Source: an uncultured Candidatus Saccharibacteria bacterium (GTDB taxonomy: Bacteria > Patescibacteriota > Minisyncoccia > Phycocordibacterales > UBA918). From it: a stretch of 64,000 nucleotides of DNA. A program made the position numbers and the translations under genes. Location of the stretch: assembly GCA_964593375.1 (NCBI GenBank), contig CAZQIF010000001.1, positions 98,185 to 162,184 on the forward strand. The letters run 5' to 3'. The notes under the pieces are model-generated. The model was given only the letters and a program-made list of their open reading frames with translations, ran no database searches and had not been told where the DNA came from. Positions 9,965-54,069 of this stretch are shown here, one piece after another. Every line of letters begins with the position of its first letter. Within the stretch, counting starts at the first letter, position 1.

Positions 9965-10006
9965 AGTACCTCTAAAACGACCTCGAGAGGTCATTTTAGA
10001 GGTACT
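9965..10006. repeat. 42-nt near-perfect palindrome agtacctctaaaacgacctcgagaggtcattttagaggtact
   Basis: Read directly. It lies within a 670-bp non-coding stretch upstream of the recombinase gene. Confidence 0.6.
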
Positions 10007-10418
10007 AGAGGTCCCGATACATACATCACACAAAGCGGATGAATAGGACTGGATTCCAGCTCATGGGCCAGAAAGACCAAAATGATGGAAAACAACCAAA
10101 TGAACGAAAAATGGTTTTTTATGATTTTTGCACAATTCAAATTTGTGCACGATATCAACCATCATGAGCAAGGGGAAGTGTGAACTATATTTTAGAAATT
10201 TTCTAACACAAATTACTTTCACACACTTTTTTCTCCGCAACTACAATTTTTTGATTTTCAGAGCAGGGGATAACTTGTTTGATTATATATGGGTAATTCT
10301 AGTATAGTACTGAGTATTAGAGATATTATACTCAGTTACAAGTGCCAGAGAATACCTTGTATTTTCAACACTTCACTCACTCCCCTCTAAGTAGATTGTT
10401 TACTATAATGAAACTGTT

Positions 10419-11390
10419 ATGACAAAGAAAACTACGGGAAAAAATGTGTTTCAACTGCTACCCTACATTGAAGATTTTTTGCTGTATATCCAAGCAAACA
10501 ATTATTCAGAAGAAACTTTATATAACTACGAGCGCGACTTGCTGACGTTCGATGCTTTTCTTTATGATGAAATGAGTAACCTCCCCTTCTCGAGCATAAC
10601 CAAGCGAACGGTCGAACAGTACAAAGCATATTTAAATTCTCGTGATCGAAAAACTGCTTCAGGAGACGATTCTGAACAGCGATTGAAGAGTGGGTCCATT
10701 AATCGTGCACTGACCTCACTTCGCAGGTACCTTGCGTATCTCATCGACATGGACTATGAAGCGCCCGTTGTTCCAGGTTCAATTAAACTCCTTCGTATGG
10801 AGAAGAAGCATGGTCAGGTAGCAGAACTAAATGAACTCATCGAACTCATCGAGTCACCGATGAAATTCGAAAAGGATAAGAGGGTTGCCCTTCGTAATCG
10901 AGCAGCACTTGAAACACTTTTTGCGAGTGGTATGCGTATATCAGAACTCATCAACTTAAAGCGAAACCAACTTGATAAATCTGGCCGAATTTTTATCCAA
11001 GGAAAAGGTAAGAAGCAAAGATTTATCTACCTCACTGAGCGTGCAATTAAGCACATTGGTTTCTATTTAGCAGAGCGTACGGATGACTTCCCCTACCTGT
11101 TTATTCCCGAACGAGGACTCAATGTCAAAGTCAAAAACAAACACATTTCTCCGAATTACCTGCAGATGAAAATAAAAAAATACCGTGAACTACTCGGTAT
11201 TAATGTTCCAACTAGTGCCCACTCACTGCGTCACGGTTTTGCAACATATCTCGCAGAAAAAGGTGCAAACCCTGCTGCCATCCAAATTCTCCTCGGACAT
11301 GAGTCACTTGATACCACCACGAGATACGTGCACGCTTCAGATAAGTATGCCGAGAGTACCCATAAGCAGTTCCACCCATTAAAGAAATGA
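10419..11390 (+). CDS. Tyrosine site-specific recombinase, XerC/XerD family
   Basis: The catalytic motifs RISELINL, HSLRHGFAT and LLGHESLDTTTRYVH are present, the last containing the catalytic Tyr. Confidence 0.85.
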   Translation: MTKKTTGKNVFQLLPYIEDFLLYIQANNYSEETLYNYERDLLTFDAFLYDEMSNLPFSSITKRTVEQYKAYLNSRDRKTASGDDSEQRLKSGSINRALTSLRRYLAYLIDMDYEAPVVPGSIKLLRMEKKHGQVAELNELIELIESPMKFEKDKRVALRNRAALETLFASGMRISELINLKRNQLDKSGRIFIQGKGKKQRFIYLTERAIKHIGFYLAERTDDFPYLFIPERGLNVKVKNKHISPNYLQMKIKKYRELLGINVPTSAHSLRHGFATYLAEKGANPAAIQILLGHESLDTTTRYVHASDKYAESTHKQFHPLKK

Positions 11391-18914: not shown

Positions 18915-19035
18915 CTAGCACGTAGCTATTAGCACTTAGCCTCTGGATCGCTTCACTTCGTTCGCGTTGACGACCGGCGCGCGAAGCGCGCCGGTCGTTG
19001 CTAAGTGCTAAAAGCTAGGTGCTAATAGCTTATAT
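18915..19035. repeat. Structured repeat element, copy D. The outer inverted words are agctattagcacttagc / gctaagtgctaa..gctaatagct. The inner sequence is ctggatcgcttcacttcgttcgcgttgac followed by the hairpin gacgaccggcgcgcgaagcgcgccggtcgt.
   Basis: Read directly. It is homologous to the DR unit of copies A and B. Confidence 0.7.
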
Positions 19036-19659
19036 GAAAAAATTCTCTGGGAGTTCTGTATCAAAAATTTTTGTGAGAAGGAAATGTTTCTTTTCTTCGC
19101 TTTCTTTTGCTTGACGAACGGCGTCCATACTCAGCACATACCCTAGTGCAGGAGCTCCACTCACCGAATCGTACGATTTTTCCTCTCCGATTCGAATACA
19201 GCCAAGTGACTCGTAAAATACGCGATGCTTAGGGTTAATAGCAAAACAGAGGTAATCGTGTGCACTCACGAGTCCATATTGCACCGCAAGACCAAGAAGC
19301 CCGACTGATACATCAAGAACAGCAATGTGTGGGAATTCCTTAAGTGCCAATTTATTAATTGCAAACTGACATACCTCTCCAATCCGAGCACCCGTATCTC
19401 GATACACTCCAAGTTCTTCGCGGTACATTATATCCATCGGCACACCATGCATGTCAGACACTACGGAGATTGTGCCAAACAGTTGTTCATTGTGGCGCGC
19501 AATCATCGTCGTTGCTCCTGCCCTGCCTAAATATGCGCCAATGCCTTCATTGTGCGAATCATCTGGATTACGGTATCCCTCTTTAACATACACTTCATGC
19601 ACAAGTTGTAGTGAATCTTGCAAGTCATCTTCTGTGCACGCAACACTAAATTGAACCAT
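19030..19659 (-). CDS. GNAT-fold acyltransferase resembling acyl-ACP-dependent N-acyl synthases (LuxI / FeeM-like)
   Basis: EVCQFAINK can be compared with the LuxI-family E.SRFA motif. A VYVKEGYR region lies near the N-terminus. The gene is in an operon with a carrier protein and a PPTase. The assignment is tentative. Confidence 0.45.
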   Translation of the reverse strand: MVQFSVACTEDDLQDSLQLVHEVYVKEGYRNPDDSHNEGIGAYLGRAGATTMIARHNEQLFGTISVVSDMHGVPMDIMYREELGVYRDTGARIGEVCQFAINKLALKEFPHIAVLDVSVGLLGLAVQYGLVSAHDYLCFAINPKHRVFYESLGCIRIGEEKSYDSVSGAPALGYVLSMDAVRQAKESEEKKHFLLTKIFDTELPENFFI

Positions 19660-19665
19660 AAAAAA

Positions 19666-19920
19666 TTATTCAACAATTCCGTACTTTATCCGACTCACAT
19701 ACTCAATCACGTCCCTCACCGTATGCATCTTTACCACATCCTCATACGCAGTTTCAACCTCATATGCCTTCTCAAATGCAAGCAACAATTCAAAGAGCTG
19801 AATTGAATCACGAGATAGATCAGCAATAATACTCTCCTCAGTAATAGCTGAAGCATTTGCTCCAAGCGAAGTCGCCATAAGTTCTATTACTTCTTTTGCT
19901 ATTTCACTATAATTTTTCAT
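19666..19920 (-). CDS. Acyl/peptidyl carrier protein
   Basis: An 84-aa acidic four-helix-type protein. DLSRDSIQLFELL is a DSL-like phosphopantetheine attachment motif. Confidence 0.65.
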   Translation of the reverse strand: MKNYSEIAKEVIELMATSLGANASAITEESIIADLSRDSIQLFELLLAFEKAYEVETAYEDVVKMHTVRDVIEYVSRIKYGIVE

Positions 19921-20633
19921 AACACCATATTAACGAGCATGTACACGTTTTTGTATACCGCCCAGTGCACTGTTGCATTCACTCGTTCTCCTGCAATAGT
20001 GATGGTGACGTTACCATTTTCAAGATTAACCATTGTTTCTACAGTGCGTGGGTGTGTCTTAAGACCCGTACCAATAGCTTTAAGATACGCTTCCTTAAGA
20101 CTCCACCTGAGCGTTGCATCAACTTTTTGCACCGCTGGTGAAAGCGCATTATGCGTATCAATTTCATGCTGAGTCATAAATCCCTTTAGAGTTTCAGGAC
20201 GAAAATTGCGTACTCGTTCGATGTCGATACCAATACCACTCCATTCACCACGTGGCACTGCATTCGCCGCTGCAAATTCATCACAATGACTGAGCGTAAG
20301 GAGTACTCCGCTCGCGTCAAAACCTGCTTGCGTATCAAGGAGCCTACCACTTGGCGGCACTCCCTGACCTGACGCAATTTCAATACGCTCGAGCGGAATC
20401 TGCACAAACTGTGTTCTATCAAAGTGGTCGTGAAGCGCACGCTTTGCTGCAAGTCTTCCAAAAAGCCAGTCACGTTGCTTTGCGAGCGGAATGCGCTTAT
20501 ACATTTCACGCTCCGTTTCGGTACATACCGCAAATGCGCTTCGTTCATCCTCAAGTTCTTTATCAACAATTACGAGGCCAAGTGTTGAGGGTTCTGTCTT
20601 TGAGAGCATGTGCTTGTATGTCGTATATATCAT
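19917..20633 (-). CDS. 4'-phosphopantetheinyl transferase (Sfp/EntD type)
   Basis: GIDIE and WSLKEAYLKAIG motifs are present. The stop overlaps the carrier-protein start. Confidence 0.8.
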   Translation of the reverse strand: MIYTTYKHMLSKTEPSTLGLVIVDKELEDERSAFAVCTETEREMYKRIPLAKQRDWLFGRLAAKRALHDHFDRTQFVQIPLERIEIASGQGVPPSGRLLDTQAGFDASGVLLTLSHCDEFAAANAVPRGEWSGIGIDIERVRNFRPETLKGFMTQHEIDTHNALSPAVQKVDATLRWSLKEAYLKAIGTGLKTHPRTVETMVNLENGNVTITIAGERVNATVHWAVYKNVYMLVNMVL

Positions 20634-20845
20634 AGGAAGTATTTAAAATGCATAAACGAGACAATTAAAAATACACCGCTGTCGTGTATGGCCTCTATAA
20701 TACCAGAAACAACACACAACACTAAATTTTTTGATTAAGCTTTGAAGTATCAATTTAAAACACAATAACCTATATATTGTCAAAATGAACTGGTCTGGAA
20801 TTAAACAAAATCAGGCATATACCATATAATTACATAATTACTCAT

Positions 20846-21487
20846 ATGCACACCCCACCAAAAAAGCATATCCCCCTGCTCCGTTTTAAGGTTTTAGATA
20901 TCCTTTATGATCCCCTTCTTTTTGTATCGGGATTGGGTAAAGGATTTAAATCAAGAATTACTAATCTTGCGAAATTAAACGACGAACCGGCCACCATCGT
21001 TGACGTCGGGTGTGGTACAGGAACGCAACTACTGATTCTGAGAGAAAAATATCCACAAGCGAAGATTTGGGGTATTGATCCAGATTTTTCATTGATTTCA
21101 AAACTTCAGTCTTCACGAGCATTTGCAACTAAAGATATTTCATTCAATTGCGCACATGCTGAATCATTGCCGTTTGAGGAAAGTTCTATTGATGTTTGTT
21201 TTTCAACCTTGGCATTCCATCATATGAGCACCCATTCAAAACAAGAAGCATTTCGTGAAATATATCGAATTCTCAAACCCGATGGCGCTCTTGTGCTTAC
21301 TGACTGGGGTGTGTCGAGATTCCCTTTTCTTCGCTTCCTTCTCATTTTTGAGAAACAGGAGTTTCTTAATGACCACATCGTTGGACTTATACCGCACTAC
21401 GCAGAACATGCAGGGTTCACACAAATTTCTGAAACTCGTGTAAAATTTTCTGGTATCTGGACATGGGTTTTTAAAAAAAAGCTATGA
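20846..21487 (+). CDS. Class I SAM-dependent methyltransferase (Methyltransf_11-like)
   Basis: The VDVGCGTG motif is followed by a typical Rossmann-fold body. Confidence 0.8.
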   Translation: MHTPPKKHIPLLRFKVLDILYDPLLFVSGLGKGFKSRITNLAKLNDEPATIVDVGCGTGTQLLILREKYPQAKIWGIDPDFSLISKLQSSRAFATKDISFNCAHAESLPFEESSIDVCFSTLAFHHMSTHSKQEAFREIYRILKPDGALVLTDWGVSRFPFLRFLLIFEKQEFLNDHIVGLIPHYAEHAGFTQISETRVKFSGIWTWVFKKKL

Positions 21488-22227
21488 GCATGACTGCTTT
21501 ATTTCTTGTTCTTGGCATTCTTGTACTGTGTGTGGTTTGCTATGAAGCGATACGTATCGGTATCCATGCACGCAAGGCAGTTCTCGCAGGTAAGCGTGCG
21601 GTTCCCGTTTCAAAAGCACATGCAAGCCCCCACAAAAGTGTGCTCGTGATTGGAGATAGTACCTCATTTGGAACTGGTGCGCGTGAGGCAAAAAACTCTC
21701 TTGTTGGACGACTTGCGCAAGATTATCCCAATATTGCAATCACCAACGCCTCACGAAACGCAATGAACGTGCGTGAATTAAAACACACGTTGTCGAACAT
21801 ACGTGAAAATCATTTTGATATTATCATGATGCACATTGGTGGTGTTGATACGCTTTCCTTTACCTCCTCAGCACAAATTACTCATCACTTTAAGGAAATT
21901 GCTGAACATACTGTTGCGATGGGAGCGGAAGCTGTTATCCTCGTTTCTGTGAACAATGTTGGTACTGCACCATTTATCCGATTTCCTCTCAGTACACTTT
22001 TTGATTGGAGAAGCAGGAAGATGACTGAGCTTTTTAGCAAACTTTCTAACACGCACAATATGCATCATGTTCCCCTCTATGAAAAACGAGAAGATGACCC
22101 GCTTGGAAAGGAACCTGAGATATTATTCTCAGACGACAAAATTCACCCAAACGATGCTGGGTATGCAGTGTGGTATCGTATGATACAGAATGCTGTCGAC
22201 CCCTATCTATCATGCACGAATATGTAA
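21484..22227 (+). CDS. SGNH/GDSL hydrolase, membrane-anchored (paralog 1)
   Basis: An N-terminal TM segment, block I VLVIGDSTSFG and block V DKIHPNDAGY. Confidence 0.75.
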   Translation: MSMTALFLVLGILVLCVVCYEAIRIGIHARKAVLAGKRAVPVSKAHASPHKSVLVIGDSTSFGTGAREAKNSLVGRLAQDYPNIAITNASRNAMNVRELKHTLSNIRENHFDIIMMHIGGVDTLSFTSSAQITHHFKEIAEHTVAMGAEAVILVSVNNVGTAPFIRFPLSTLFDWRSRKMTELFSKLSNTHNMHHVPLYEKREDDPLGKEPEILFSDDKIHPNDAGYAVWYRMIQNAVDPYLSCTNM

Positions 22228-23039
22228 CCCTACTCATCACGTCGCTCCCCCCTCTCGATTCCTCGAGTGCAGTATTTTACGTTACAAACGTATTGATATT
22301 CATTGTAGTACTGAGGACGCTCATCATGATTCTCCACCTTCTCCTCAATAAACAGCTTGCGTTTTCAAGTAAGCCATATACGTCGACGAACGAACAGGCA
22401 AAAAAAATACTCATTCTCGGTGATAGTACTGCAGTAGGAACCGGTGCACATGCTCCCGAAGAAACTATAGCTGGGAGACTTGCGCACGATTTTCCAAATG
22501 CTCAAATTGTGAACGTAGCACAAAACGGGGGTATTATTAAAGACCTCACGAAGCAAATTGAAAAAGTTTCAGGCCAAACATTTGACATCATCATCATAAG
22601 TGCAGGAGGAAATGATGTGTGGCATTTTTCTCGACTCAAAACAATTCGCACACACCTCACGGGAGTCTTTTTACAGGCACTTACAATGAGCAATCATCGT
22701 GTCATTTTTCTTCATTACAATAGTATTGGTTCTGCACCACTCTTCCCTTTTCTCATTCAGTTCTTCCTCAAAATCGAGGAGAAGCGAATTTATAAAACCA
22801 TTCATGCAGTTGCATCAGAATTACAAGTGCCTATCATCAACCTTTTTACGGAGGAGACTGATAACCCATTTTTAAAGAATCCGAAGCATCTTTTTGCACG
22901 CGATGGTATTCATCCGAGTTCACGTGGATACGAAGTCTGGTACCACCGTATGTGGCTCGAAATGGTGCGAAATGGATACTACTCTTCAGAGAATAACAAA
23001 ATACCCAAAGATTTGTCTTCCCCGGTTCAAAACTATTAG
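22212..23039 (+). CDS. SGNH/GDSL hydrolase, membrane-anchored (paralog 2)
   Basis: ILILGDSTAVGTG and ARDGIHPSSRGY motifs are present. The ATG at 22212 overlaps the upstream stop, and the ORF is open from 22170. Confidence 0.7.
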   Translation: MHEYVTLLITSLPPLDSSSAVFYVTNVLIFIVVLRTLIMILHLLLNKQLAFSSKPYTSTNEQAKKILILGDSTAVGTGAHAPEETIAGRLAHDFPNAQIVNVAQNGGIIKDLTKQIEKVSGQTFDIIIISAGGNDVWHFSRLKTIRTHLTGVFLQALTMSNHRVIFLHYNSIGSAPLFPFLIQFFLKIEEKRIYKTIHAVASELQVPIINLFTEETDNPFLKNPKHLFARDGIHPSSRGYEVWYHRMWLEMVRNGYYSSENNKIPKDLSSPVQNY

Positions 23040-23041
23040 TA

Positions 23042-23908
23042 CTAGTCTTTTACCAAAAATCGAGCAAGTCGTATTTTGATTTGTTGGAGTGGATTTCTGT
23101 TTCCAAACGACATGCGGCCGAGCACGTATCGGTCGCGCATCACATCAAACTGGTGATAATACGGCACTGCATGAATCGTTCCTCTTTTGAGTAAAATTTT
23201 TAGTGCTTGAATTGCTACAACTCCCGCACAAAGATTAATAGCGCCAATCGAAGATGGGCCACGTTTCTCATTAAGATTTGTCCCTTTTAGGTAGCTCCGT
23301 TGAAGCATTTTTGGAAGAAGACCCACAAAAAAGGCAATGAGCTTTTCGTGGTATGACATCGAATCTTTTACGGCAAAGTAATCGTCAAAGTTTGGCCCTC
23401 CCGGCATAAAAATAAGAAACGCCGTACCAAACCCAATTGGTCCCGCAGTGACAACAGGGATATATCGCTTCAGCGATTCATTGTAGAGCATACGACGTGC
23501 GTCAACTTCAAATGCATCGAGTGCATCGACGGTAAGATGGGCATCGTGAAGAAATATATCAATATTTTCAGGGGTAATGCCCGAGTTAAATATTTCAATT
23601 TGGCAGTTTGGGTTGATTTTGAGTGCTTCCTCCTTCATTACGTGGACTTTTTCTTGCCCGAGCGTGTTCATGTTTGCTCCGTATTGTCGGTTGAAATTTT
23701 TAAGCTCAAAGACATCCAAGTCTGCAACTTTGAATTTTTCAAATCCTTGCCGTACAAGCGAAATGAGATGCGCTCCGCCGACACCACCCATACCCGGAAT
23801 TGCAATGGTAAACTCGCGGAGCTTTGCCTGCTCATCAGTTGAAAGAAGACCGATATTGCGAGAAAATGCCTCTGAATAATTAAATGGTGTTGTAGAAAGA
23901 TTAGTCAT
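23042..23908 (-). CDS. ThiF/MoeB/HesA (E1-like) family adenylyltransferase
   Basis: GMGGVGGAHL is a nucleotide-binding loop on a Rossmann-type body. There is no clear C-terminal rhodanese domain or Cys motif. Confidence 0.8.
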   Translation of the reverse strand: MTNLSTTPFNYSEAFSRNIGLLSTDEQAKLREFTIAIPGMGGVGGAHLISLVRQGFEKFKVADLDVFELKNFNRQYGANMNTLGQEKVHVMKEEALKINPNCQIEIFNSGITPENIDIFLHDAHLTVDALDAFEVDARRMLYNESLKRYIPVVTAGPIGFGTAFLIFMPGGPNFDDYFAVKDSMSYHEKLIAFFVGLLPKMLQRSYLKGTNLNEKRGPSSIGAINLCAGVVAIQALKILLKRGTIHAVPYYHQFDVMRDRYVLGRMSFGNRNPLQQIKIRLARFLVKD

Positions 23909-23917
23909 GAGGTCTTG

Positions 23918-24994
23918 TTAAGAATAGGTAATGTCTGGTTCTTTGCGGAGAGATGGAATTCGGCGCCCGGTACCAACCCCAATGCGGAACATGCACATAA
24001 GTTTTTCATTAGAGCCAACAGCGAATTTTTCATATAATGATTTTGTGCTTTTCTTAAGAAGAGTTTTTTGAGGTAGTGTGAATGCTGATGGATCCTCTTC
24101 AACATGTTCATTAAGTAGAAGGGTTGCAAAGGTTGGCTGCACGCTAAGTCCTTGCCTTGTTGCAACGAGCCACATGCGCTCTAAAATCCTCCCCGCGTGT
24201 ACACATTCAGTATGGGTACTGCTCGGAAGGATAATGCCACAGTATGCACCGGCTTGTGTGTACCTTAGTGACTCCACCAAAGCAGCGATATGTTGAATGC
24301 CGAGCGTTCCTAAAACACTTACAATCTTCCACTTGCGGAGCACGAATCGAAATAGTATGAATTTACAGAAATTGAGTTCCAGTGTTCGAACATCAAGTCC
24401 ATCTTCGGTGGTGTGCACTTCATGCGGTGTCCACCTCAGTGCTGCGAAGAATTCCTCATGGAGTTTTTGGTGTGAAAAAAGAAGCTGAACTTGTGTCATA
24501 ACAAGGTGCGCAATTTCGCGAATTGTTTTCTTATTTTCGATGAAAACAACACGCCCACTAAGCCTAAGAGTTGATGGTATTTGAGAAAGCTCATCTTTTT
24601 GTGTCAGTGAAAGAGGTTCCTTGAGATAGGGACCTCGATCTGTAATGCGGTCATACATGTACCGGTACAGATTCACACCTCGATCAACCGGGTCATACAT
24701 GAGTGTAATGGTTGCGGTATGTTTTGGGTCTTTTTTTGCTGGAAATAAAACAACTTTTGCATCATATCCAAAGTGGTCTGCTGCAATGAGCATGTTTTCA
24801 ATCACACAACCATGTGTGATGTGCTCAACAAAAGATGACCCTACAAGGATGTTTTTAGATTGTTTTTGCCCAGTTGAAAAAATTTTTACGGTGTTCCGTC
24901 TTACGACAAAACGCCATGGCTGTGTATTGTCACCCGAAGGTGCTGAGACACCTGCGCGGATAATTTCTCTAATGTCATCACGAAGCTTGCTCAT
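23918..24994 (-). CDS. Two-domain nitroreductase-family (SagB-type-like) oxidoreductase
   Basis: The N-terminus SAPSGDNTQPWRFVV is the canonical nitroreductase motif. At 358 aa it is consistent with a two-domain architecture. Confidence 0.75.
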   Translation of the reverse strand: MSKLRDDIREIIRAGVSAPSGDNTQPWRFVVRRNTVKIFSTGQKQSKNILVGSSFVEHITHGCVIENMLIAADHFGYDAKVVLFPAKKDPKHTATITLMYDPVDRGVNLYRYMYDRITDRGPYLKEPLSLTQKDELSQIPSTLRLSGRVVFIENKKTIREIAHLVMTQVQLLFSHQKLHEEFFAALRWTPHEVHTTEDGLDVRTLELNFCKFILFRFVLRKWKIVSVLGTLGIQHIAALVESLRYTQAGAYCGIILPSSTHTECVHAGRILERMWLVATRQGLSVQPTFATLLLNEHVEEDPSAFTLPQKTLLKKSTKSLYEKFAVGSNEKLMCMFRIGVGTGRRIPSLRKEPDITYS

Positions 24995-25053: not shown

Positions 25054-25488
25054 TCATATTCCTTTGCAGTTGCCTGCTGGGGTATATCCCGCCTTTTCAG
25101 CTTCTGCCTTTGAGTTGAACCATACTTTGTTTTCTTCTTTAATTTGCTTTGCTCCAACACACCACGGGAGGTGGTATTTGGTGCCGTTTTTGGATGCGAC
25201 ATACTGTGCATCTGCTACAACAGGTACACCAGACTTTTCAATATTCTTGGTAGTCGTTGCCTCATTTGTACCCTCATTAAAAACGTCCGTTACTTGAGAC
25301 AGAGGAATAGAAGCAGTGGTTTCATTTGTACTGTTTTTTGGCCCAAAATCGGCCACAGAGGCCCTCCCAAGGCCAAAAGATGCAACTCCAACGAGTACGA
25401 GCAAAATGGCCAAAAAAACGTCTTTGTCTGCAAAAAACCGCTTGATATTTATGATTATCTCTTGTATACTCACGCGGTCATTATACAC
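25054..25488 (-). CDS. Membrane-anchored protein with a C-terminal Cys-containing domain (YHLPWC...[10 protein letters not shown])
   Basis: A TM anchor, a Thr/Asn-rich linker and a conserved-looking Cys/His C-terminal module. Confidence 0.4.
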
Positions 25489-40126: not shown

Positions 40127-41362
40127 CTACAACACTAGTAAATCTGGATTGAGAACAAGTAATGTTCCTAAAACAAGCATTAGGATTCCCCCCACAAGAA
40201 GCGACATTTGCGCGTACTTGTGTCCGTGCGCTTCAAGTTTTGAAAAGCCCCATATTGCGAGACCAAAGACAATGAAATCGTCGACCATATATCCAACCGA
40301 GTATACGATGAGGTAAAACTGTCGTGTTATAAAGTCGAGCTGATTGAGTTCGAGAATTTTGGTGTATGCCTGCGGAATACCGATAGAGCAAGCAAATTCG
40401 ATAACATTGACTGAGAACGCGAGTGCGATGATGCCAAAAATAGTGAGAATGGTTGTCGGGCGACTGATAAGGTCTTTGATGCGCGCCGTTGTCTTCCCTT
40501 GTGACTCAATATCACTTATGTCACACGTGAGTGCTTTGTTTCGATTTTTGCGATAGCGATACAAGAAGAAAATACCCCCTCCTACCGCAAGAAGTCCCAC
40601 GAGTGGTGTGACAATCGCGTCAAGACCTACAAAGTCCCATGCGGTAAACCACACATTGAGGATGAGGTTGTACATGATGGCTTCTGCAACCACAAAGATA
40701 CTCGCGACCATGACCATCTTTTTCCTGTCACCAATCTGCGAAAGAAGCACAAGGAAGGTGATGAGTACCCACATCGCACATGGATTAAAACCATCAATCG
40801 TTCCCAAAATTGCAGAGAGTGAAAAGAGTGAGAGTGTCTTTAAATCAACAACGCCGAGAAGTGGCAAGTTGAAGACGAACTGATTTGGATTCGTAATCGA
40901 ATCACAGGAAGTACCGTTTTCGTCGCACCCGGTGCCAACAAAACTATCTGATTGCTTCGGTGCTCGCGCGAGGTGGTCTTCGATGGTTTTAATGTCTGAT
41001 GAGCGTGCACGCAGAACCATTTCTTTAATGCGGACTCCAGTCGTATCCCCAGTACTAAAACCCTGAATCACTTCCCCACCTATAACGGTAAGCGGTGTGA
41101 CGTGCGAAAGCTCGTGCTTATTTAAAAGTGCCTCAAATGCTACTTTTGCTTCCTCATCATCAATTACATTCAGATATTCGTAGCTCACACTGGAATCATT
41201 AGCGCCATACGTATCCAAAAAAATCTTTTCGTCAGCACAATGGGTGCATTTGTCGCGTCCAAAAAGAAAGACGGTCACTGGTGCACTCGGCGCTTGTGCA
41301 AAGGTCGTGTAGCTAAATAGACTAACGAAAATAAAGCACAATATAATGAATAGGCGTGTCAT
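40127..41362 (-). CDS. Thiol-disulfide oxidoreductase-like membrane protein. It has a signal peptide and an N-terminal thioredoxin/glutaredoxin-like CxxC domain fused to a CcdA/DsbD-like polytopic domain with TM cysteines.
   Basis: The CTHC motif, and NPCAMW and EFACSIG in TM helices. The assignment is tentative. Confidence 0.5.
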   Translation of the reverse strand: MTRLFIILCFIFVSLFSYTTFAQAPSAPVTVFLFGRDKCTHCADEKIFLDTYGANDSSVSYEYLNVIDDEEAKVAFEALLNKHELSHVTPLTVIGGEVIQGFSTGDTTGVRIKEMVLRARSSDIKTIEDHLARAPKQSDSFVGTGCDENGTSCDSITNPNQFVFNLPLLGVVDLKTLSLFSLSAILGTIDGFNPCAMWVLITFLVLLSQIGDRKKMVMVASIFVVAEAIMYNLILNVWFTAWDFVGLDAIVTPLVGLLAVGGGIFFLYRYRKNRNKALTCDISDIESQGKTTARIKDLISRPTTILTIFGIIALAFSVNVIEFACSIGIPQAYTKILELNQLDFITRQFYLIVYSVGYMVDDFIVFGLAIWGFSKLEAHGHKYAQMSLLVGGILMLVLGTLLVLNPDLLVL

Positions 41363-44103: not shown

Positions 44104-44355
44104 CATGAGTCTCTCCTCGAGTGAATAAGAGCAAAACTTACCAACCGGCATAGTACCACAAAATCTTAGTACTTCCAGACGAACGTACCCCGTGGACTTT
44201 ATCAAACGACATATTTCTGGTATAACTATGGCCGGAAATTAAGAAGCGCAAGCAACTATAATTTCCGAGCCCGTCGGTTCATGTGTCCCAGAGAGACACC
44301 TTGAACAGACGCCAGAGGCAAACGCTCAGTACAGAACAAACGTAGATACACATTC

Positions 44356-44545
44356 GGCCTCATCGTCTGACGCTGAAATTTGTATGATGCGAATGCATCA
44401 TAACAAGCAAACTGCTTTGCTTGTGTACAAATTTCAGAATCGGAGCATGTCGCTCTGCGACAGCGAGATGGGGTCGCGGAATTTCGCAAGAAATATCCGA
44501 GACTAGGACAGCTGGTCTTGTAAACATCCAGCAAATCGGTTCAGT
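44356..44545 (+). pseudogene. Pseudo-tRNA-Glu. The 5' acceptor/D fragment GGCCTCATCGTCTGACG lies at 44356-44372, followed by a 131-nt insert. A D/anticodon-arm fragment with an enlarged loop lies at 44503-44544. The T arm and 3' acceptor are missing.
   Basis: Direct alignment to the intact tRNA-Glu immediately downstream. Confidence 0.6.
44373..44437 (+). repeat. 65-nt cloverleaf-like structured insert: a 12-bp closing stem ctgaaatttgta/tacaaatttcag enclosing the two hairpins tgatgc-gaat-gcatca and acaagcaaa-ctgc-tttgcttgt
   Basis: Read directly. It lies inside the pseudo-tRNA. Confidence 0.55.
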
Positions 44546-44557
44546 ACAATTACAGAC

Positions 44558-44629
44558 GGCCTCATCGTCTAACGGTTAGGACAGCTGGTTCTCATCCAGC
44601 AAATCGGGGTTCGATTCCCCGTGAGGTCA
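44558..44629 (+). tRNA. tRNA-Glu (anticodon CTC)
   Basis: A manually folded cloverleaf. The acceptor is GGCCTCA/TGAGGTC, the D arm GTCTAACGGTTAGGAC, the anticodon stem GCTGG/CCAGC with loop TTCTCAT, and the T arm CGGGGTTCGATTCCCCG. Total length is 72 nt and CCA is not encoded. Confidence 0.85.
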
Positions 44630-44644
44630 TGTTACAAAAGCGAG

Positions 44645-44667
44645 CACGTATTAACGTGCCGTTTTTG
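44645..44667 (+). terminator. Intrinsic terminator gcacgtattaacgtgc followed by cgttttt, after the tRNA
   Basis: A perfect 6-bp stem followed by a T run. Confidence 0.6.
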
Positions 44668-44683
44668 TTAATGACCTCACGGG
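44654..44683. repeat. 30-bp direct repeat acgtgccgtttttgttaatgacctcacggg, copy 1. It contains the reverse-complemented tRNA-Glu 3' end. Copy 2 lies at 45692-45720.
   Basis: Direct comparison gives 26 of 29 identical positions. Confidence 0.65.
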
Positions 44684-44834
44684 CAAGAGTGTATAGACAC
44701 TCTTGCAGGGGAATCGAACCACCGGAACGATGTTACATCGTCACGAGTGAGGTGTGTCCCGCGGCACTTAATATTTTGTAAGTGAAGCGCAACAAAATAT
44801 TTAGTGACCGTCAGGATCATTCCCCATGAGGTCA
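44671..44834. pseudogene. Further tRNA-Glu-derived fragments. One is minus-oriented with a T-arm/acceptor-like sequence interrupted by the 22-nt hairpin caagagtgtatagacactcttg. A plus-oriented 3' fragment gatcattccccatgaggtcac lies at 44814-44834.
   Basis: Similarity to the tRNA-Glu T arm and 3' end. No intact cloverleaf could be folded. Confidence 0.45.
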
Positions 44835-44988
44835 CAAATCACCATCAGCAACACGGAGGCCCGGCCTCCGTGTTAACCACTGCAAACCAAACTGATTTAA
44901 ATTCGCCATACTTCTGTTTTTGTGTTATAAATTTAATAGTCTTTGTTATTTGTAAGCCAAACACATAGAGAAAGAAAGGCATTCCAAC

Positions 44989-45552
44989 ATGACCCTAACG
45001 CTCGAAGAGCCCGGAGTTAATACTTGGGGATTGAAATCGTATATGCCCAAGGGTAATTTGTTTTTCCCATATGTCATCACTCGTCCCTTGGTGGCGTGGG
45101 ACATGCTACCCCTGATGCTCTTTCAGAAGTATCTTTCGGAAGAAACGGTTAGACAACGTTTCCACTACAACAAGAAGCTCGACCAACGGATACGCTGGGA
45201 TCGCCTGATGGATGCGTGCACTATCGATTACCAGAACGATATCGCCTTCGTCGCCACCAGTCTCATTGGTTCGATTCTTGGACTTGTGCAACTATATCGC
45301 GACAAGCCAAAGTCTGAATCAGCTGAAATCGCATTCGTGGTACGAGATGATCTTCAGAAGAATGGCCTGGGGCGTACGCTCACGCGTCGCACCCTTGAGG
45401 CTGCGCGGCTCCGTGGCATAACAGCAGTACATGGTGTCACCGAGCCCGAAAACACCCCGATGATTCGCGCATTTCTTTCGTGGGGATTCACCATCAAACG
45501 AGTCGACGGTGAGGTTGAGGCAACGCTCGTGCTTCCGCCAATCCAAAGCTGA
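44989..45552 (+). CDS. GNAT family N-acetyltransferase
   Basis: The acetyl-CoA-binding motif LQKNGLGRTL (Q/RxxGxG/A) is present. Confidence 0.8.
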   Translation: MTLTLEEPGVNTWGLKSYMPKGNLFFPYVITRPLVAWDMLPLMLFQKYLSEETVRQRFHYNKKLDQRIRWDRLMDACTIDYQNDIAFVATSLIGSILGLVQLYRDKPKSESAEIAFVVRDDLQKNGLGRTLTRRTLEAARLRGITAVHGVTEPENTPMIRAFLSWGFTIKRVDGEVEATLVLPPIQS

Positions 45553-45691
45553 TGTTGAACAAAAGCACCCCTTCATCCGTTACGTCGCGCCAAGCACGTA
45601 ACGGATTTTCTTTATTCAAGGCAAATACCCTCCCATGATTCATTTAGTCACCTCACATTTACAGAGATTCTGCCCTCGGGAACATACATGT

Positions 45692-45720
45692 GTGTGCCGT
45701 TCTTGTTAATGGTCTCACGG
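45692..45720. repeat. Direct repeat copy 2, gtgtgccgttcttgttaatggtctcacgg
   Basis: See 44654-44683. The two copies bracket the GNAT gene. Confidence 0.65.
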
Positions 45721-45830
45721 TTTTAATCGTGACTTGCGCACATTTCTAAAGAAGATTGTCTTCACCCTTCACAAAAAACCGACTTTCCTCTATTATCAAC
45801 TCCGAGTTTACAAACCAATGGAGGTATTCC

Positions 45831-46187
45831 ATGGAAAAAGTTCCTTTAGTACAGTACGGTGGAGTTATTCAGACTCTGCTTGCTGAAATCATGAACAAAC
45901 GACGTGGAGCAATGAAAGGATCACAGGAGCAATATAGCGATATTCCACCTCGAGATTTTTTCGCCTACATTGCAAAGCACCCACTCCCCGAAGTCGAGTA
46001 TTTTGACAGATGGATGGCCGAGAAAGTGAACGAGATCATCCGCTTCATCAACAAAACTGATGATGCGCTGAATCTCAAGCGTGCAATCAACTACGTACTC
46101 AAACAAAGCGGAAACAATGGGCACTGCCCGTTTGCGGGAGACAACTATAGTCCCGACCGCCTCGAGATTGATGACAGAGATGAATAA
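45831..46187 (+). CDS. Hypothetical protein (118 aa)
   Basis: RBS ggagg precedes the ORF and a strong terminator follows at 46215-46275. The ORF is open from 45756. Confidence 0.4.
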   Translation: MEKVPLVQYGGVIQTLLAEIMNKRRGAMKGSQEQYSDIPPRDFFAYIAKHPLPEVEYFDRWMAEKVNEIIRFINKTDDALNLKRAINYVLKQSGNNGHCPFAGDNYSPDRLEIDDRDE

Positions 46188-46279
46188 AACAACCTACGGA
46201 GAGAGCACACAGGACTCCAGCTCCCGCTTATGAAGACAAAGACTGTCTTCATAAGCGGGGGCTGTTTTATTTTTGATAC

Positions 46280-46380
46280 TAATCCAACTTAATACACTGC
46301 ACGGGGCAGGCCTCAGTAGCGTCTTTGTTGGCTTCGAAATTGGCTTCGTCGATTGGTGCGACGACCACGCGATTATTTTT
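46280..46380 (-). pseudogene. Ferredoxin 3'-end remnant encoding ...KNNRVVVAPIDEANFEANKDATEACPVQCIKLD*. It is the displaced copy of the fdx C-terminus.
   Basis: It is about 85% identical to 47018-47118. The first 37 nt, which include the stop codon, are identical. Confidence 0.6.
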
Positions 46381-46609
46381 TGGTACGCTTGAGAAAATTG
46401 AGATATACAACCCTATCGATACCGAGTGTACGAAGATTATTAAGTACAATCATTTGTGGTAACTGTGAGTCTCTTGGGATTACAATTGGTCTGTTTATTC
46501 CCACTTTCCAATAGATGCGGTGGTCTCCCTTTTCCCTTTTAAACTCACAACCCTGACTCAAAAGAAACTTTTCGAATTCTTTCCAATGTATTGCGCCTAT
46601 TTTTGGCAT
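46373..46609 (-). CDS. hicA: HicA-family type II toxin (mRNA interferase)
   Basis: KEFEKFLLSQGCEFKREKGDHRIYW...VIPRDSQLPQ..VLNNLRTLGI matches the HicA/YcfA pattern. Confidence 0.7.
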   Translation of the reverse strand: MPKIGAIHWKEFEKFLLSQGCEFKREKGDHRIYWKVGINRPIVIPRDSQLPQMIVLNNLRTLGIDRVVYLNFLKRTKK

Positions 46610-46621
46610 GCGGAGGAAATG

Positions 46622-46903
46622 TTAGGCAAAAGTAGGTACCTTAACACTAAAATCTTTCGTCGTAATAGTTGGTGGAGTCCATTGTTTTAGAACTTTCTTC
46701 CACCCAAGTTCAGAAAGTACTTCGTCGGTAGTGCCGGCATTATGCAGTTCTTCAAAAAAAATACCCACAAGTTCATTGAAGCGTGCTTTCACCTCCTTAT
46801 CTGATTTACCTGAAGTTGCGATATCAAGAGCAGGCGCATACGCAACAAAGCGACGGCCTTGCTTAGAAATATTGACTTTAAGTTGCAGAGAATTTGGAAT
46901 CAT
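46622..46903 (-). CDS. hicB: HicB-family antitoxin
   Basis: RFVAYAPALDIATSGKSDKEVKARFNELV is a UPF0150/HicB-like N-terminal domain. The gene lies upstream of hicA in the same operon. Confidence 0.6.
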   Translation of the reverse strand: MIPNSLQLKVNISKQGRRFVAYAPALDIATSGKSDKEVKARFNELVGIFFEELHNAGTTDEVLSELGWKKVLKQWTPPTITTKDFSVKVPTFA

Positions 46904-47026
46904 ATACTTACAGGTTACACCACCACAAAAACTCGGTCAATCATCGATAATTTCATGTACGTTTGCCAAGATTTTGTTACGGCAATTCTATAGTTTATAC
47001 ATAGGTCCGGCCTTCGTAATTGTACG

Positions 47027-47263
47027 TTAATCCAACTTAATACACTGCACGGGGCAGGCCTCAGCAGCGTCTTTGTTTGCTTCGTAGTCGGCTTCATCAA
47101 TTTGAGCCACCACCATTTTATTCCCTTTCATTTTTCCATTCTGGAGGTCGGACTTCCCATCTTCTTCATTCATCTTCCAATTTTTTGGTGCAAGCATCGA
47201 GCAAGAACCACACCCGATACAGGAGTTACGTTGATGACAAATGATAATTTTTTTGATTCCCAT
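47027..47263 (-). CDS. 4Fe-4S ferredoxin
   Basis: The cluster motifs CIGCGSC and ACPVQC are present. The protein is 78 aa long. Confidence 0.8.
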   Translation of the reverse strand: MGIKKIIICHQRNSCIGCGSCSMLAPKNWKMNEEDGKSDLQNGKMKGNKMVVAQIDEADYEANKDAAEACPVQCIKLD

Positions 47264-47314
47264 ACAATGTATTAATTACCCGCAAACTCTCTAGGGGACC
47301 CCTAGAGAGTTTGA

Positions 47315-48628: not shown

Positions 48629-49243
48629 TTACCCATAAAACTCAATCATGCGGTTTACCTTATCTTCAATACTCATCAGAGGGCCGAGACATTCACTGTA
48701 CTCGAGGGTTGCAGAGGCATTCTTCCAAAAATGAAACTTGTGTTTTGCATTGAGACCCGTAAGTCGCACGAGCACAATCGGGACATTCTCTGAAAAAAGA
48801 ACTTTGGCTCCCCGTTCAAAGTCGGCAACCATATCGGAATCACGCACGATCTTCCCTTCTGGAAAAAGGAGAATCGTATATCCCTGCCGAAGAAAGTCTC
48901 GTGTGAGGAGAAGACGTTGCATGCGCTCCATGACGGTATTTCCAATATTGTATCCACCAAAGAGCCGGATGAAAAATCCGAGTATGGGGCGTTCCATGTA
49001 GTCGGGTGTCACCGGATAACGGACAGGAACCACATTCGTCCAGTTTCGTATCCCGATGTGGTACGTAATGAGAAATGGGTCAATCTTGCTCTGGTGGTTC
49101 GCCACAATGAACGTACCATGTGTTATGCGTAGACCATCTGGACGTTTAACGGTAATCCGGAGAAGTCGCGTCAGCACAAAATTGACCGGTATGGTCATGT
49201 ACTGAATTGCAACAAACCAGCCCTTCATGAGAATCTTTTGCAT
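48629..49243 (-). CDS. plsC: 1-acyl-sn-glycerol-3-phosphate acyltransferase (PlsC/LPLAT family)
   Basis: NHQSKID matches HxxxxD, and FPEG is present. The ORF is open to 49276. Confidence 0.8.
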   Translation of the reverse strand: MQKILMKGWFVAIQYMTIPVNFVLTRLLRITVKRPDGLRITHGTFIVANHQSKIDPFLITYHIGIRNWTNVVPVRYPVTPDYMERPILGFFIRLFGGYNIGNTVMERMQRLLLTRDFLRQGYTILLFPEGKIVRDSDMVADFERGAKVLFSENVPIVLVRLTGLNAKHKFHFWKNASATLEYSECLGPLMSIEDKVNRMIEFYG

Positions 49244-49304
49244 GGTTAATTGATAGCCAGTATAACACGCCATCAAAGCCCTTACTGATACTGTGTTTTA
49301 GTGT

Positions 49305-49787
49305 CTAGAGCAGTTGCCCAATAATCACCACATAGTTTTTGCCATACTTCTTCGCACATTTTGGACAAGTGGTATACCACATGAACATTTTTTTGACCGC
49401 CATTCCCTTCTCAGTGGTGAAGCGTTCAAAATCTTCCATCCATTTTCCGGTGTCTTTGAAATTGCCTTCATACACCTTACTAAAGAAGTTGCCACTCATG
49501 ACGACGTTTTCAGCATCTTCAACTTTGGTATCAACAGATATGTACAAATCCATATTCCACTTAGAAGTATGGTCTGAAAGCCACATAGCGTCCGCACCCA
49601 CAGTGCCCGTTTTTTCAATTTTTTCCTGACAACGCTTCATAACCCCGCCAAAGTTAACGGGCATATAGAAAAGCGTAAAGACTTTGTCTTTGATAAATTT
49701 CTTGTTGTTCCACGTAAATGTTTTATTGTCCCATGGTGCTGGATCAAATTTTAAGCAACATACTTCTTCTTTTTGTAGTGTTTCCAT
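49305..49787 (-). CDS. Hypothetical protein (160 aa)
   Basis: The ORF has a conserved-looking C-terminal CPKCAKKYG. I recognise no family. Confidence 0.4.
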   Translation of the reverse strand: METLQKEEVCCLKFDPAPWDNKTFTWNNKKFIKDKVFTLFYMPVNFGGVMKRCQEKIEKTGTVGADAMWLSDHTSKWNMDLYISVDTKVEDAENVVMSGNFFSKVYEGNFKDTGKWMEDFERFTTEKGMAVKKMFMWYTTCPKCAKKYGKNYVVIIGQLL

Positions 49788-53052: not shown

Positions 53053-54069
53053 TATAGAAACATTTAGGGTGCTTTTATGAACCTTTGAGTAACTCTGAGA
53101 TAACTTTAAATCGTCTATCTTTTCGAAGTCCATGATGTTGCGCAACTTTCTTTTTGAGGCCGGCAAAATATCCATCAATAGTATTTGTAGTGTTGGGAAT
53201 ATTAAGTTCAGGGTATCGCTGATAGGTGAACAAATGGGGAAGATTTGTTGCGAGTGAACGATACGCACTCCGTACGTTCTTGTGTGTGTAGTACCAATGC
53301 TTGGTACCAAGAACATACGTCTTCTCAGTAATGAAGGAACGGTACTGCTTCTCCCAGAGGGTAAGTGCAGTGGTAAAGACCTCTTCGGTAGTGTGTGGCA
53401 AGGTGAGCATGAGCGTGCGAAGGTCTTGTCCTGCTTGTGTTTCAGGTTTTCTCGTAAGGTACTTCGTCACCGTCTTCATCTGGTGGAAGTGACATACTTG
53501 TACTGGTATGTCTTTAAAGACGGTGGCTAAGCCACGCCGTCCGTCAATAACCGCAGCGGTGAAGATCCACCCACGTGACTCGAGTATTTTTCGTCCGTAG
53601 TGGTAGTGTGCCATGATTTCACTTGATACTTCACCCCACCAAAGATTCTTGTGGAGTGTCCACGATCTAAACACACAGACACCATATAGACGTCCCCAGA
53701 ACGTAGTGTCTGCGACGATGATAGTGGCTTGGGGTATGAGGTCGGTCTGTGTGACCGCATGGGCATCAAGTTGTTTGCGTACCCACACATGACTCTTCCC
53801 GTATGTATGAGCAAGTTCATTGAGTGTTTGCTTGCCGTGAGTGTATGCGTGCCAAAGCTTTTCTGGTATTCCTGTGTCTCTCTTTTTATATTGAAATCGA
53901 TACCCGCACACACCGCACTGATATCGTTGCACACGATTGCGTGTTCCATTCTTTTTAACGGTTATTGCACTGCATTTGGAGCAAATCCGCTGTTTTTTTA
54001 TGCAGTGTCATAAATTATTCAACTTTTATAATTAAATAGAGCCGTACTATAGCAAAAATAGCACCCCAA
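53053..54069 (-). mobile_element. IS1-family-like insertion sequence of about 1.0 kb. Its 24-bp imperfect terminal inverted repeats are agaaacatttagggtgctttt (left) and aaaatagcaccccaaatgtttct (right).
   Basis: The inverted repeats were read directly at both ends of the transposase gene. Confidence 0.65.
53075..53932 (-). CDS. IS1-family transposase (InsAB-like fusion)
   Basis: The QRYQCGVCGYRF zinc-finger half and a DDE-type body are present. The upstream CSKCSAITVKKNGTRNR half of the InsA-type finger is in another frame. An ATG at 54009-54011 would fuse in frame if the A7 run at about 53993-53999 were A6. Confidence 0.65.
   Translation of the reverse strand: MQRYQCGVCGYRFQYKKRDTGIPEKLWHAYTHGKQTLNELAHTYGKSHVWVRKQLDAHAVTQTDLIPQATIIVADTTFWGRLYGVCVFRSWTLHKNLWWGEVSSEIMAHYHYGRKILESRGWIFTAAVIDGRRGLATVFKDIPVQVCHFHQMKTVTKYLTRKPETQAGQDLRTLMLTLPHTTEEVFTTALTLWEKQYRSFITEKTYVLGTKHWYYTHKNVRSAYRSLATNLPHLFTYQRYPELNIPNTTNTIDGYFAGLKKKVAQHHGLRKDRRFKVISELLKGS

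Follow-up and report, generated by a model that had tools for sequence, protein, structure and literature searches.

A 6-kb island at positions 19030 to 24994 of the DNA analysed here (hereafter the window: 64,000 nucleotides of contig CAZQIF010000001.1, from an uncultured bacterium) probably encodes an acyl carrier protein (ACP)-dependent pathway for acyl-oxazolones or N-acyl-dehydroamino acids, of the type represented by OxzAB, TyzABC and TrzAS. The island comprises five genes that an earlier reading of the DNA (the original prediction) had flagged, for a methyltransferase, two SGNH hydrolases (SGNH#1 and SGNH#2), a ThiF-like protein and a nitroreductase (NTR), together with a divergent operon for a 4'-phosphopantetheinyl transferase (PPTase), an ACP and a FeeM-type N-acyl amino acid synthase (NAS). 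Pfam backs the assignment of each gene in the region; all five flagged genes exist as open reading frames (ORFs) where they had been placed. The synthase, left unnamed in the original prediction, changes the verdict of an "unclear" product given there: since a FeeM-type synthase, a ThiF protein and a nitroreductase form the trio published for acyl-oxazolones, the class of the product is no longer in doubt to that extent.

The trio is known from several systems. De Rond, Asay and Moore described OxzA, an N-acyltransferase, and OxzB, a ThiF-nitroreductase di-domain protein, which produce tyrazolones and phenazolones, that is, 4-arylidene-oxazolones formed from N-acyl Tyr or Phe (bioRxiv 10.1101/2020.06.11.147165). 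In M. tuberculosis, Grigg et al. characterised the acyltransferase TyzA, the ThiF-type ATP-dependent cyclase TyzB and the FDO-type O2-dependent desaturase TyzC (PMC10404671). Kleetz et al. assigned Rv1355c (TrzS) and Rv1356c (TrzA) to a tryptazolone pathway (PMC12856293), and Sauer et al. found clusters of NAS, ThiF, nitroreductase and methyltransferase genes in producers of N-acyl dehydrotyrosines, N-acyl tyrosines having been reported from just three phyla (PMC12479983). Biochemical work on TyzABC and TrzAS confirmed all three activities (PMC10404671; PMC12856293). The window contains the corresponding core: a synthase of the FeeM/NasY fold, a ThiF protein with an intact adenylation site, and an FDO-type NTR encoded next to ThiF.

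The synthase, ThiF and nitroreductase genes

The synthase matches the Pfam FeeM family (PF21926, E 1.8e-26), and its best sequence match is FeeM itself (Protein Data Bank (PDB) entry 2G0B, E 2.1e-21, residues 18-177). FeeM is an ACP-dependent N-acyl tyrosine synthase (PMC10404671). The window enzyme thus resembles that of the FeeM/FeeL system from environmental DNA, whose ACP dependence fits the ACP gene adjacent to the window synthase; that system, however, lacks a ThiF or nitroreductase step and thus ends at a plain N-acyl amino acid. The ACP gene is located 6 nt upstream of the synthase gene, and the end of the PPTase gene runs 4 nt into the ACP gene. Ser39 of the ACP lies within a D-S-I motif, while the PPTase scores 52.5 bits against TIGR00556 (cut-off 45.35) and carries the motifs GIDIE and WSLKEA. 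The two proteins therefore have the marks of a type II carrier-protein system, namely the D-S-x serine and a two-lobed Sfp-type transferase of the ACPS superfamily. Because the ACP falls below every AcpP equivalog cut-off of NCBIfam (best 52.9 versus 71), we call it divergent. Orthologues of the synthase adjoin an ACP gene in the related loci L001, L003 and L091-L094, described below.

Some 3.4 kb from the synthase gene, the ThiF gene lies 9 nt downstream of the NTR gene on the same strand. ThiF carries the sequence GMGGVGGAHL and the NTR carries SAPSGDNTQPWRF, in agreement with the original prediction, which had placed a two-domain nitroreductase on the strand opposite the hydrolases with ThiF immediately after it. 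ThiF scores 358 bits against PRK08223, a family of stand-alone ThiF proteins (cut-off 266), and also matches PRK14851 and PRK14852. It remains under the equivalog cut-offs of the ThiF models (92 versus 159 and 75 versus 152 bits), of MoeB (66 versus 266) and of TcdA (63 versus 304). The GxGxxG motif (G39/G41/G44), R74, K87, D128 and D131, whose roles in adenylation were assigned from the MoeB/ThiF literature, are invariant among 27 homologues. The protein has two cysteines in all and no CxxC zinc motif, and no ThiS/MoaD-like small ORF ending in GG was found near its gene. The ATP-binding half aligns with TcdA, Uba5, ThiF and MoeB; the closest solved relative, TcdA, has been described as an oxazolone-forming cyclase (PMC12596934). 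Homologues from proteobacteria and planctomycetes are 45-49% identical to the window protein, and about half of them correspond to the ThiF part of ThiF-NTR fusions. ThiF is predicted to be an ATP-dependent oxazolone cyclase of the kind of TyzB or the N-terminal domain of OxzB.

The NTR matches PRK14851, a ThiF-nitroreductase model of 679 positions (4e-47), the NCBIfam "Rv1355c family" over its whole length (2e-44) and the "Acg family FMN-binding oxidoreductase" model (2e-34); no SagB-type NCBIfam model matched at E<=0.01. The only full-length PDB match of an AlphaFold2 model of the protein (pLDDT 88.4, pTM 0.90) is 2YMV, an Acg homologue from M. smegmatis, which is also the top Foldseek match (E 7e-12, TM-scores 0.70/0.76). 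The remaining matches are single-domain nitroreductases that cover about half of the model. An APSxxNxQPW motif is present in lobe 1, and R116/R120, at the start of lobe 2, are invariant. From these features the NTR would be a pseudo-dimeric, single-flavin enzyme. Its predicted activity is that of an FDO-type Calpha-Cbeta desaturase, as in TyzC or the C-terminal domain of OxzB.

The three window proteins match successive parts of PRK14852, a model of 989 positions (synthase 32-199, ThiF 311-586, NTR 617-745), and the PRK14851 and Rv1355c family (TrzS) models span ThiF plus NTR. The end-to-end order of the PRK14852 matches implies that the three domains are found in one polypeptide elsewhere, which would constitute a Rosetta-stone link. 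A triple NAS-ThiF-NTR fusion was not found among the fetched loci, and PRK14852 is thus the sole link joining all three families. Three candidates were discarded: the ORFs of 902 aa in L061 and 808 aa in L021 merely contain N-terminal read-through in high-GC DNA, and L073 is a plain ThiF-NTR fusion.

Distribution of the gene set in other genomes

A scan with the ThiF alignment, taking one genome per species, yielded 80 loci. In a tblastn search of these loci with the window proteins (adjacent meaning within 400 nt), 26 loci showed the NTR fused to ThiF, another 26 had it adjacent, and 6 more had it at a distance of up to 10 kb. Thus, the two are fused or adjacent in 52 of the 80 relatives, and some of the cases in which tblastn missed the NTR, such as L073, proved to be divergent fusions. 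Word-indexed searches found just 19 relatives of the NTR and 9 of the synthase. Iterated profiles, run in their place on all ORFs of the 80 loci, detected an NTR homologue in 59 loci and, in 70, a synthase homologue no more than 10 kb away (68 of these within 5 kb); 55 loci had both. The suggestion that ThiF and NTR make up a specialised, co-transcribed unit is therefore upheld by their fusion or adjacency in most relatives. Among the ThiF relatives are Undibacterium and Stieleria, two genera linked by experiment to oxazolones or N-acyl dehydrotyrosines: oxzAB from Undibacterium was functionally expressed (bioRxiv 10.1101/2020.06.11.147165), and in Stieleria clusters of ThiF, NTR, methyltransferase and NAS genes accompany N-acyl dehydrotyrosines (PMC12479983). 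The SGNH pair and PPTase were present in none of the 77 loci from genomes outside the Candidate Phyla Radiation (CPR), save for a PPTase-profile match in L005. The ACP was detected by tblastn only in L001 and L003, the profile scan being unfit for ORFs of ACP size.

A metagenome scan with the SGNH#2 alignment gave five loci, useful in themselves but too few for statistics. At least five further contigs (L001, L003, L090, L091 and L092; gene orders in Table 1) contain the gene set in shuffled order: the seven genes other than the methyltransferase gene are all found in L001 and L003, all eight are found in L091, and L090 and L092 are variants. This recurrence in reordered form shows that the clustering is not due to chance. 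That the set is retained despite the shuffling also argues that the SGNH pair, the ACP and PPTase, and the methyltransferase are functionally coupled to the core, and it bears out the original view of a single compact island of about 6 kb working together with the carrier-protein operon. An acyltransferase, AT2, adjoins the ACP/NAS genes in L001, L003 and L090-L094, and PlsC-type acyltransferases, DedA/VTT proteins, patatin and MacB-type exporters are recurrent in the islands of the relatives.

A MacB/FtsX-type ABC exporter and a HlyD-like adaptor are encoded beside the synthase module in L090 (2392-6041) and L094 (6408-9844), and an ABC ATPase occupies the corresponding position in L092. This arrangement hints that the product of the pathway may be exported. 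Divergent from ThiF in L092 (856-4528) are genes for an aldehyde dehydrogenase, an unannotated protein of 381 aa and a reductase-like protein (Epimerase/NAD_binding_4); this locus, which has no nitroreductase, may carry out a variant chemistry.

The two SGNH proteins are paralogues with an N-terminal transmembrane (TM) segment each, as originally proposed: they share 27% identity in alignment (reciprocal tblastn E ~1e-30), and a hydrophobic segment covers residues 1-22 of SGNH#1 and about 20-46 of SGNH#2 (19-residue Kyte-Doolittle means of 2.73 and 2.82, respectively). Since basic residues follow the TM helix in both proteins, the positive-inside rule would lead one to expect the catalytic domains to face the cytoplasm. 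Both proteins exceed the Pfam Lipase_GDSL_2 threshold. The comparison took in block I (GDS), block II (Gly), block III (GxND) and block V (DxxH). SGNH#2 has the canonical S-G-N-H residues, with all four blocks, block III as GGND, in 9/9 orthologues, while block III of SGNH#1 reads GG(V/I)D in 8/8 orthologues, with Val in the window copy and with Ser, Gly, Asp and His retained. Judging by these blocks, the two lineages appear to be old and differentiated. SGNH#2 belongs to a small subfamily, with 102 representatives out of 1.84 billion at E<=1e-30. The two genes are invariably found in tandem (in the window and in L001, L003 and L088-L092), pointing to divided labour or to a heteromer. The stop/start overlaps noticed in the original prediction amount to 4 nt (ATGA) between the methyltransferase gene and SGNH#1 and to 16 nt between SGNH#1 and SGNH#2. 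The latter value applies with SGNH#2 starting at ATG 22212. The ORF had been listed from GTG 22170; the aligned N-termini of orthologues back ATG 22212, most likely the true start.

Orthologues of the methyltransferase are found in CPR-type islands (49% identity in L091 and L093, 35% in L088 and L090), and relatives of the window and L001 enzymes adjoin ThiF/NTR in Stieleria (L007) and Roseiconus (L023) as well as in several proteobacteria. A BioC-like role was considered and rejected: the match (2.9e-16) is far under the cut-off and reflects generic class I similarity, and fatty-acid synthase genes are lacking.

Table 1. Features of the window, followed by the gene content of related CPR-type islands.
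Feature	Position	Strand	Remarks
N-acyl amino acid synthase (FeeM/NasY/OxzA type), 209 aa	19030..19659	-	final gene in the PPTase-ACP-NAS operon
Dedicated acyl carrier protein, 84 aa	19666..19920	-	Pfam PP-binding E 3.5e-8
Sfp-type 4'-phosphopantetheinyl transferase, 238 aa	19917..20633	-	Pfam ACPS E 1.1e-17
Divergent intergenic region, 212 bp	20634..20845	.	only sizeable gap in the island
Class I S-adenosylmethionine-dependent methyltransferase (UbiE/Methyltransf_11-like; MT), 213 aa	20846..21487	+	Pfam Methyltransf_11/25 E ~5e-22
SGNH paralogue 1 (SGNH#1), 247 aa, N-terminal TM helix	21484..22227	+	Pfam Lipase_GDSL_2 E 4e-14
SGNH paralogue 2 (SGNH#2), 275 aa, N-terminal TM helix	22212..23039	+	Pfam Lipase_GDSL_2 E 1.5e-16
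ThiF-like adenylating enzyme, 288 aa	23042..23908	-	PF00899 1.1e-39; PRK08223 above cut-off
Two-lobed nitroreductase-superfamily flavin oxidase (NTR), 358 aa	23918..24994	-	NCBIfam PRK14851, Rv1355c and Acg families
PlsC-family acyltransferase, possible detached accessory	48629..49276	-	Pfam Acyltransferase E 1.8e-12
L091 (closest relative)			all eight genes; MT shifted behind SGNH#2
L001			SGNH1-SGNH2-DedA-patatin-PlsC-PlsC-PPTase-ACP / NAS-NTR / ThiF-MT
L003			NAS-ACP-PlsC-PlsC-SGNH2-SGNH1 / PPTase-NTR-ThiF-DedA
L090			ThiF-PlsC-NAS-HlyD-ABC-FtsX / SGNH1-SGNH2 / MT-NTR
L092			ThiF-DedA / SGNH2-SGNH1-PlsC / PPTase-ACP-NAS; without nitroreductase
L088, L089, L093, L094			partial contigs, consistent with the other islands

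The proposed pathway and competing explanations

Family membership, the PRK14852 model, synteny and the published enzymology of the homologues together make it likely that PPTase, synthase, ThiF and FDO act as follows. The Sfp-type PPTase would convert the dedicated ACP to holo-ACP, and the FeeM-type synthase would then move a fatty acyl group from acyl-ACP onto an amino acid at its alpha-amino group; analogy points to an aromatic one (Tyr, Phe or Trp) as most likely. The ThiF-like enzyme would use ATP to adenylate the free carboxylate, and attack by the amide oxygen would produce a 5(4H)-oxazolone, from which the two-lobed FMN oxidase would take two hydrogens across the Calpha-Cbeta bond, giving a conjugated 4-ylidene-oxazolone. 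These last two steps might occur in the other order. In either case it is by analogy that ATP-dependent cyclisation and O2-dependent desaturation are predicted to lead to an oxazolone in the window. The methyltransferase would subsequently methylate the head group, a modification known from the methylated stieleriacines, and the membrane-tethered SGNH enzymes would act on the lipid. As a guess, we favour the idea that these enzymes open the electrophilic oxazolone, whether they hydrolyse it to the N-acyl-dehydroamino acid or transfer it to an acceptor; alternatively, they may supply acyl chains from phospholipids. In this scheme, we infer the product, the amino acid, the use of ACP over CoA as donor, the methylation site and the role of the SGNH enzymes.

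A close parallel in architecture is TyzABC (Rv2336-Rv2338c), in which the three activities reside in separate proteins, as in the window. There too, a stand-alone FDO nitroreductase and a stand-alone ThiF cyclase share an operon, and the acyltransferase is encoded nearby and transcribed separately. TyzC was modelled as a monomeric two-lobed Acg-like enzyme, like the window NTR. The likeness runs through the NCBIfam Rv1355c/Acg family matches and the shared architecture rather than through direct sequence comparison. Unlike the window synthase (Table 1), TyzA has 322 aa and was assayed with acyl-CoA, and TyzABC, from an actinobacterial host, has no ACP, PPTase, SGNH pair or methyltransferase. 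OxzAB, from Pseudoalteromonas rubra and other proteobacteria, combines N-acyltransferase, ThiF and nitroreductase domains as the window does, and a synthase homologue usually lies directly upstream in the loci of the proteobacterial ThiF homologues. OxzB is a single di-domain protein, whereas the window has two genes; OxzA was reconstituted with decanoyl-CoA, and the two-gene operon lacks carrier-protein, SGNH and methyltransferase genes. The window NTR matches the family model named after Rv1355c, that is, TrzS, and 2YMV, which was also the structural reference for TrzS, is the closest solved fold for both. A D217A mutant, altered in the conserved ThiF Asp of TrzS, was unable to cyclise (PMC12856293), and D217 probably corresponds to the invariant D128/D131 of the window ThiF. 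TrzS differs in being a 722-position fusion specific for tryptophan and short chains, and its ThiF part scores only 59 bits with the window ThiF. Finally, the clusters for stieleriacine and for thalassotalic and kyonggic acids contain NAS, ThiF, nitroreductase and a UbiE-like methyltransferase, as the window does (PMC12479983). The products isolated are ring-opened, methylated N-acyl dehydrotyrosines; their hosts are Planctomycetota and Pseudomonadota, and neither ACP/PPTase nor SGNH genes have been described for them.

Several observations weigh against an acyl-oxazolone pathway. The characterised OxzA, TyzA and TrzA use acyl-CoA in vitro, not acyl-ACP, and no acyl-ACP synthetase or fatty-acid synthase gene is present in the window, leaving the source of the acyl chains unexplained. 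Known desaturases require O2. The NTR is just 23-30% identical to its homologues outside the CPR, and the link to OxzB, TyzB and TyzC is indirect. The iterated synthase profile may have drifted to other proteins of the GNAT fold, and the product is deduced from genes, not observed. The ThiF subfamily also extends beyond the pathway: it occurs without NTR in L092, alone in the Kaiserbacteria locus L082, and paired with an AMP-binding ligase, with neither synthase nor NTR, in DPANN archaea. The L082 homologue (68% identical; 10001-10855 of the locus) belongs to a complete genome of 951,832 bp (CP060228.1), with no other island gene within 10 kb on either side. The DPANN homologues, whose hosts include Woesearchaeota and Nanoarchaeota, are 59-61% identical in L002 (8421-10846) and L012 (8421-10855) and 47% identical in L010 (5954-8408). 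An AMP-binding/PaaK-like ligase gene lies directly upstream of ThiF; in L002 and L012 the ligase stop overlaps the start of ThiF. The neighbours encode palmitoyl-thioesterase/LCAT-like alpha/beta hydrolases, patatin, a DedA-like protein and an ABC transporter. These loci suggest transfer between domains together with a different carboxylate substrate.

The strongest competitor, which we nonetheless regard as unlikely, is a role of the island in making or remodelling a membrane aminolipid. In that case the synthase would cooperate with a PlsC-type O-acyltransferase, following the OlsB/OlsA logic of ornithine lipids, while ThiF would activate the carboxylate of the lipid for ester or amide ligation to another nucleophile, not for closing an oxazolone ring, and the NTR would desaturate another position. 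PlsC-family genes do lie next to ACP/NAS genes in L001, L003, L090, L092, L093 and L094, and the DedA/VTT, patatin and MacB-type proteins of the relatives, the NTR-less ThiF of L092 and the AMP-ligases and lipases around the DPANN homologues would fit as well. FDO enzymes, moreover, are generally tied to lipid biosynthesis (PMC10404671). The PlsC homologue of the window, however, is 24 kb distant from the island, and the majority of the 80 genomes encode ThiF as a fusion with the NTR or adjacent to it, close to a synthase, an architecture demonstrated only for oxazolones. Besides, since oxazolones are themselves activated acyl donors, aminolipid formation may be a downstream elaboration of the oxazolone pathway rather than a true alternative to it.

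A more doubtful extension of the acyl-oxazolone pathway holds that the island of the ultrasmall CPR bacteria, unlike its counterparts in other phyla, is self-contained, and that the oxazolone is not an end product but a reactive lipid intermediate in the interaction between an episymbiont and its host. The SGNH pair would then have one of two roles: stripping acyl chains from scavenged host phospholipids for loading onto the dedicated ACP, or using the oxazolone as donor to attach the N-acyl-dehydroaminoacyl group to an acceptor on the membrane or the host. In the relatives the pair would be joined by PlsC-type acyltransferases, DedA, patatin and the MacB-type exporter.

That ThiF and NTR are merely unrelated housekeeping neighbours is very improbable. 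ThiF would in this case be an activator of the MoeB/ThiF/TcdA type, serving sulfur transfer or tRNA modification, and the NTR would either be an ordinary NAD(P)H nitroreductase or sequester flavin as an Acg-like protein. The alignment of the ATP-binding half of ThiF with such activators, and the fact that Acg has no established catalytic role, speak for it. Against it stand the ThiF, MoeB and TcdA scores far under their cut-offs (92/159, 66/266 and 63/304), the missing CxxC motifs and the lack of a ThiS/MoaD-like gene nearby, as well as fusion, adjacency and synteny of ThiF with NTR and synthase across phyla, which contradict chance. The original prediction had named an ordinary nitroreductase, a MoeB/ThiF-type activator and lost synteny as the outcome that would overturn it; the scores and the 80 neighbourhoods show the opposite on each count.

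Least probable of all is the explanation favoured in the original prediction, whereby ThiF and NTR are the docking and dehydrogenase half of a thiazole/oxazole-modified peptide (TOMM) system with YcaO and precursor encoded elsewhere. The pairing recalls McbB/McbC or SagC/SagB: in McbBCD and SagBCD, too, an E1-superfamily protein and an FMN nitroreductase-superfamily enzyme form and oxidise a five-membered O/N heterocycle, and our inspection covered 64 kb of the genome. TOMM synthesis, though, depends on a YcaO cyclodehydratase acting on a precursor peptide of ribosomal origin; neither is present here, as the original prediction had itself remarked. No YcaO was identified by Pfam among window ORFs of at least 285 aa, two of which (40127-41362, of 411 aa, and 53075-53932) match no family. 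The intergenic short ORFs within 14-30 kb are not rich in Cys, Ser or Thr, and the gaps within the island (6, -4, 212, -4, -16, 2 and 9 nt) leave no space for a precursor gene. No TOMM-specific NCBIfam model matched ThiF or NTR at E<=0.01, and no McbC/SagB-type dehydrogenase structure figures among the 50 listed Foldseek matches. The TOMM dehydrogenase is of SagB/McbC type and acts on a peptide, whereas the window NTR belongs to the two-lobed Acg/TyzC/Rv1355c (FDO) type, with a lipid-like small molecule as predicted substrate; likewise the TOMM E1-like partner is a docking domain, whereas the window ThiF retains a complete adenylation site. The conserved partners in the relatives are the N-acyl amino acid synthase, the ACP and lipid enzymes, never YcaO.

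Island boundaries, surroundings and significance

The 212-bp gap probably holds the promoters of both divergent operons. The best sigma-70-like matches there are 10/12 at 20802-20830 on the plus strand and 9/12 at 20753-20726 on the minus strand. As the number of matches in a promoter and terminator scan of this region was not above chance, the operon boundaries were based on gene spacing. Directly upstream of the NTR gene and in the same direction (25054-25488, minus strand) is a gene for a membrane-anchored sunset-domain protein of 144 aa, just below the cut-off of NCBIfam NF051437 and with a weak Ada_Zn_binding match. The arrangement is repeated in L091 (65% identity); we excluded the gene from the island, as it is absent from all other islands.

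The PlsC homologue of the window (33% identical to AT2 of L001) would belong to the pathway only by inference from the relatives. It is adjoined by a gene for a PF20603 "Bacterial hydrolase" protein (49305-49787, minus strand, E 1.2e-63). Elsewhere in the window are a tyrosine recombinase/integrase gene (10419-11390) and, within 44250-47300, a stretch of about 3 kb with short ORFs only, around the single tRNA gene of the window (tRNA-Glu, 44558-44629). The best named homologues of the window proteins come from Minisyncoccia, Paceibacteria, Nomurabacteria and Kaiserbacteria, and the gene content is that of typical small-genome housekeeping genes plus the sunset-domain protein. On these grounds the host genome is of the CPR/Patescibacteria type.

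The core chemistry and architecture were already known and are not categorically new. What is new is the CPR host lineage, the split-gene form linked to a carrier protein, and the conserved accessories, that is, the diverged SGNH pair and the methyltransferase, with PlsC, DedA and MacB in the relatives. Within the paper collection searched, none connected Patescibacteria with oxazolone biosynthesis or N-acyl amino acid synthases. As a correction to annotation, an E1-like protein beside a nitroreductase does not imply a ribosomally synthesised and post-translationally modified peptide (RiPP).

Only recently were acyl-oxazolones and N-acyl dehydro-amino acids recognised as a class of lipids. The island widens the known distribution of their pathway to genomes of the CPR/Patescibacteria type and ties it to carrier-protein chemistry, with an ACP and PPTase of its own and a membrane-anchored SGNH pair. 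CPR bacteria have very few biosynthetic genes and are generally held to depend on their hosts for lipids; for this reason, the presence of such an island points to an investment in some specialised lipid or signal.

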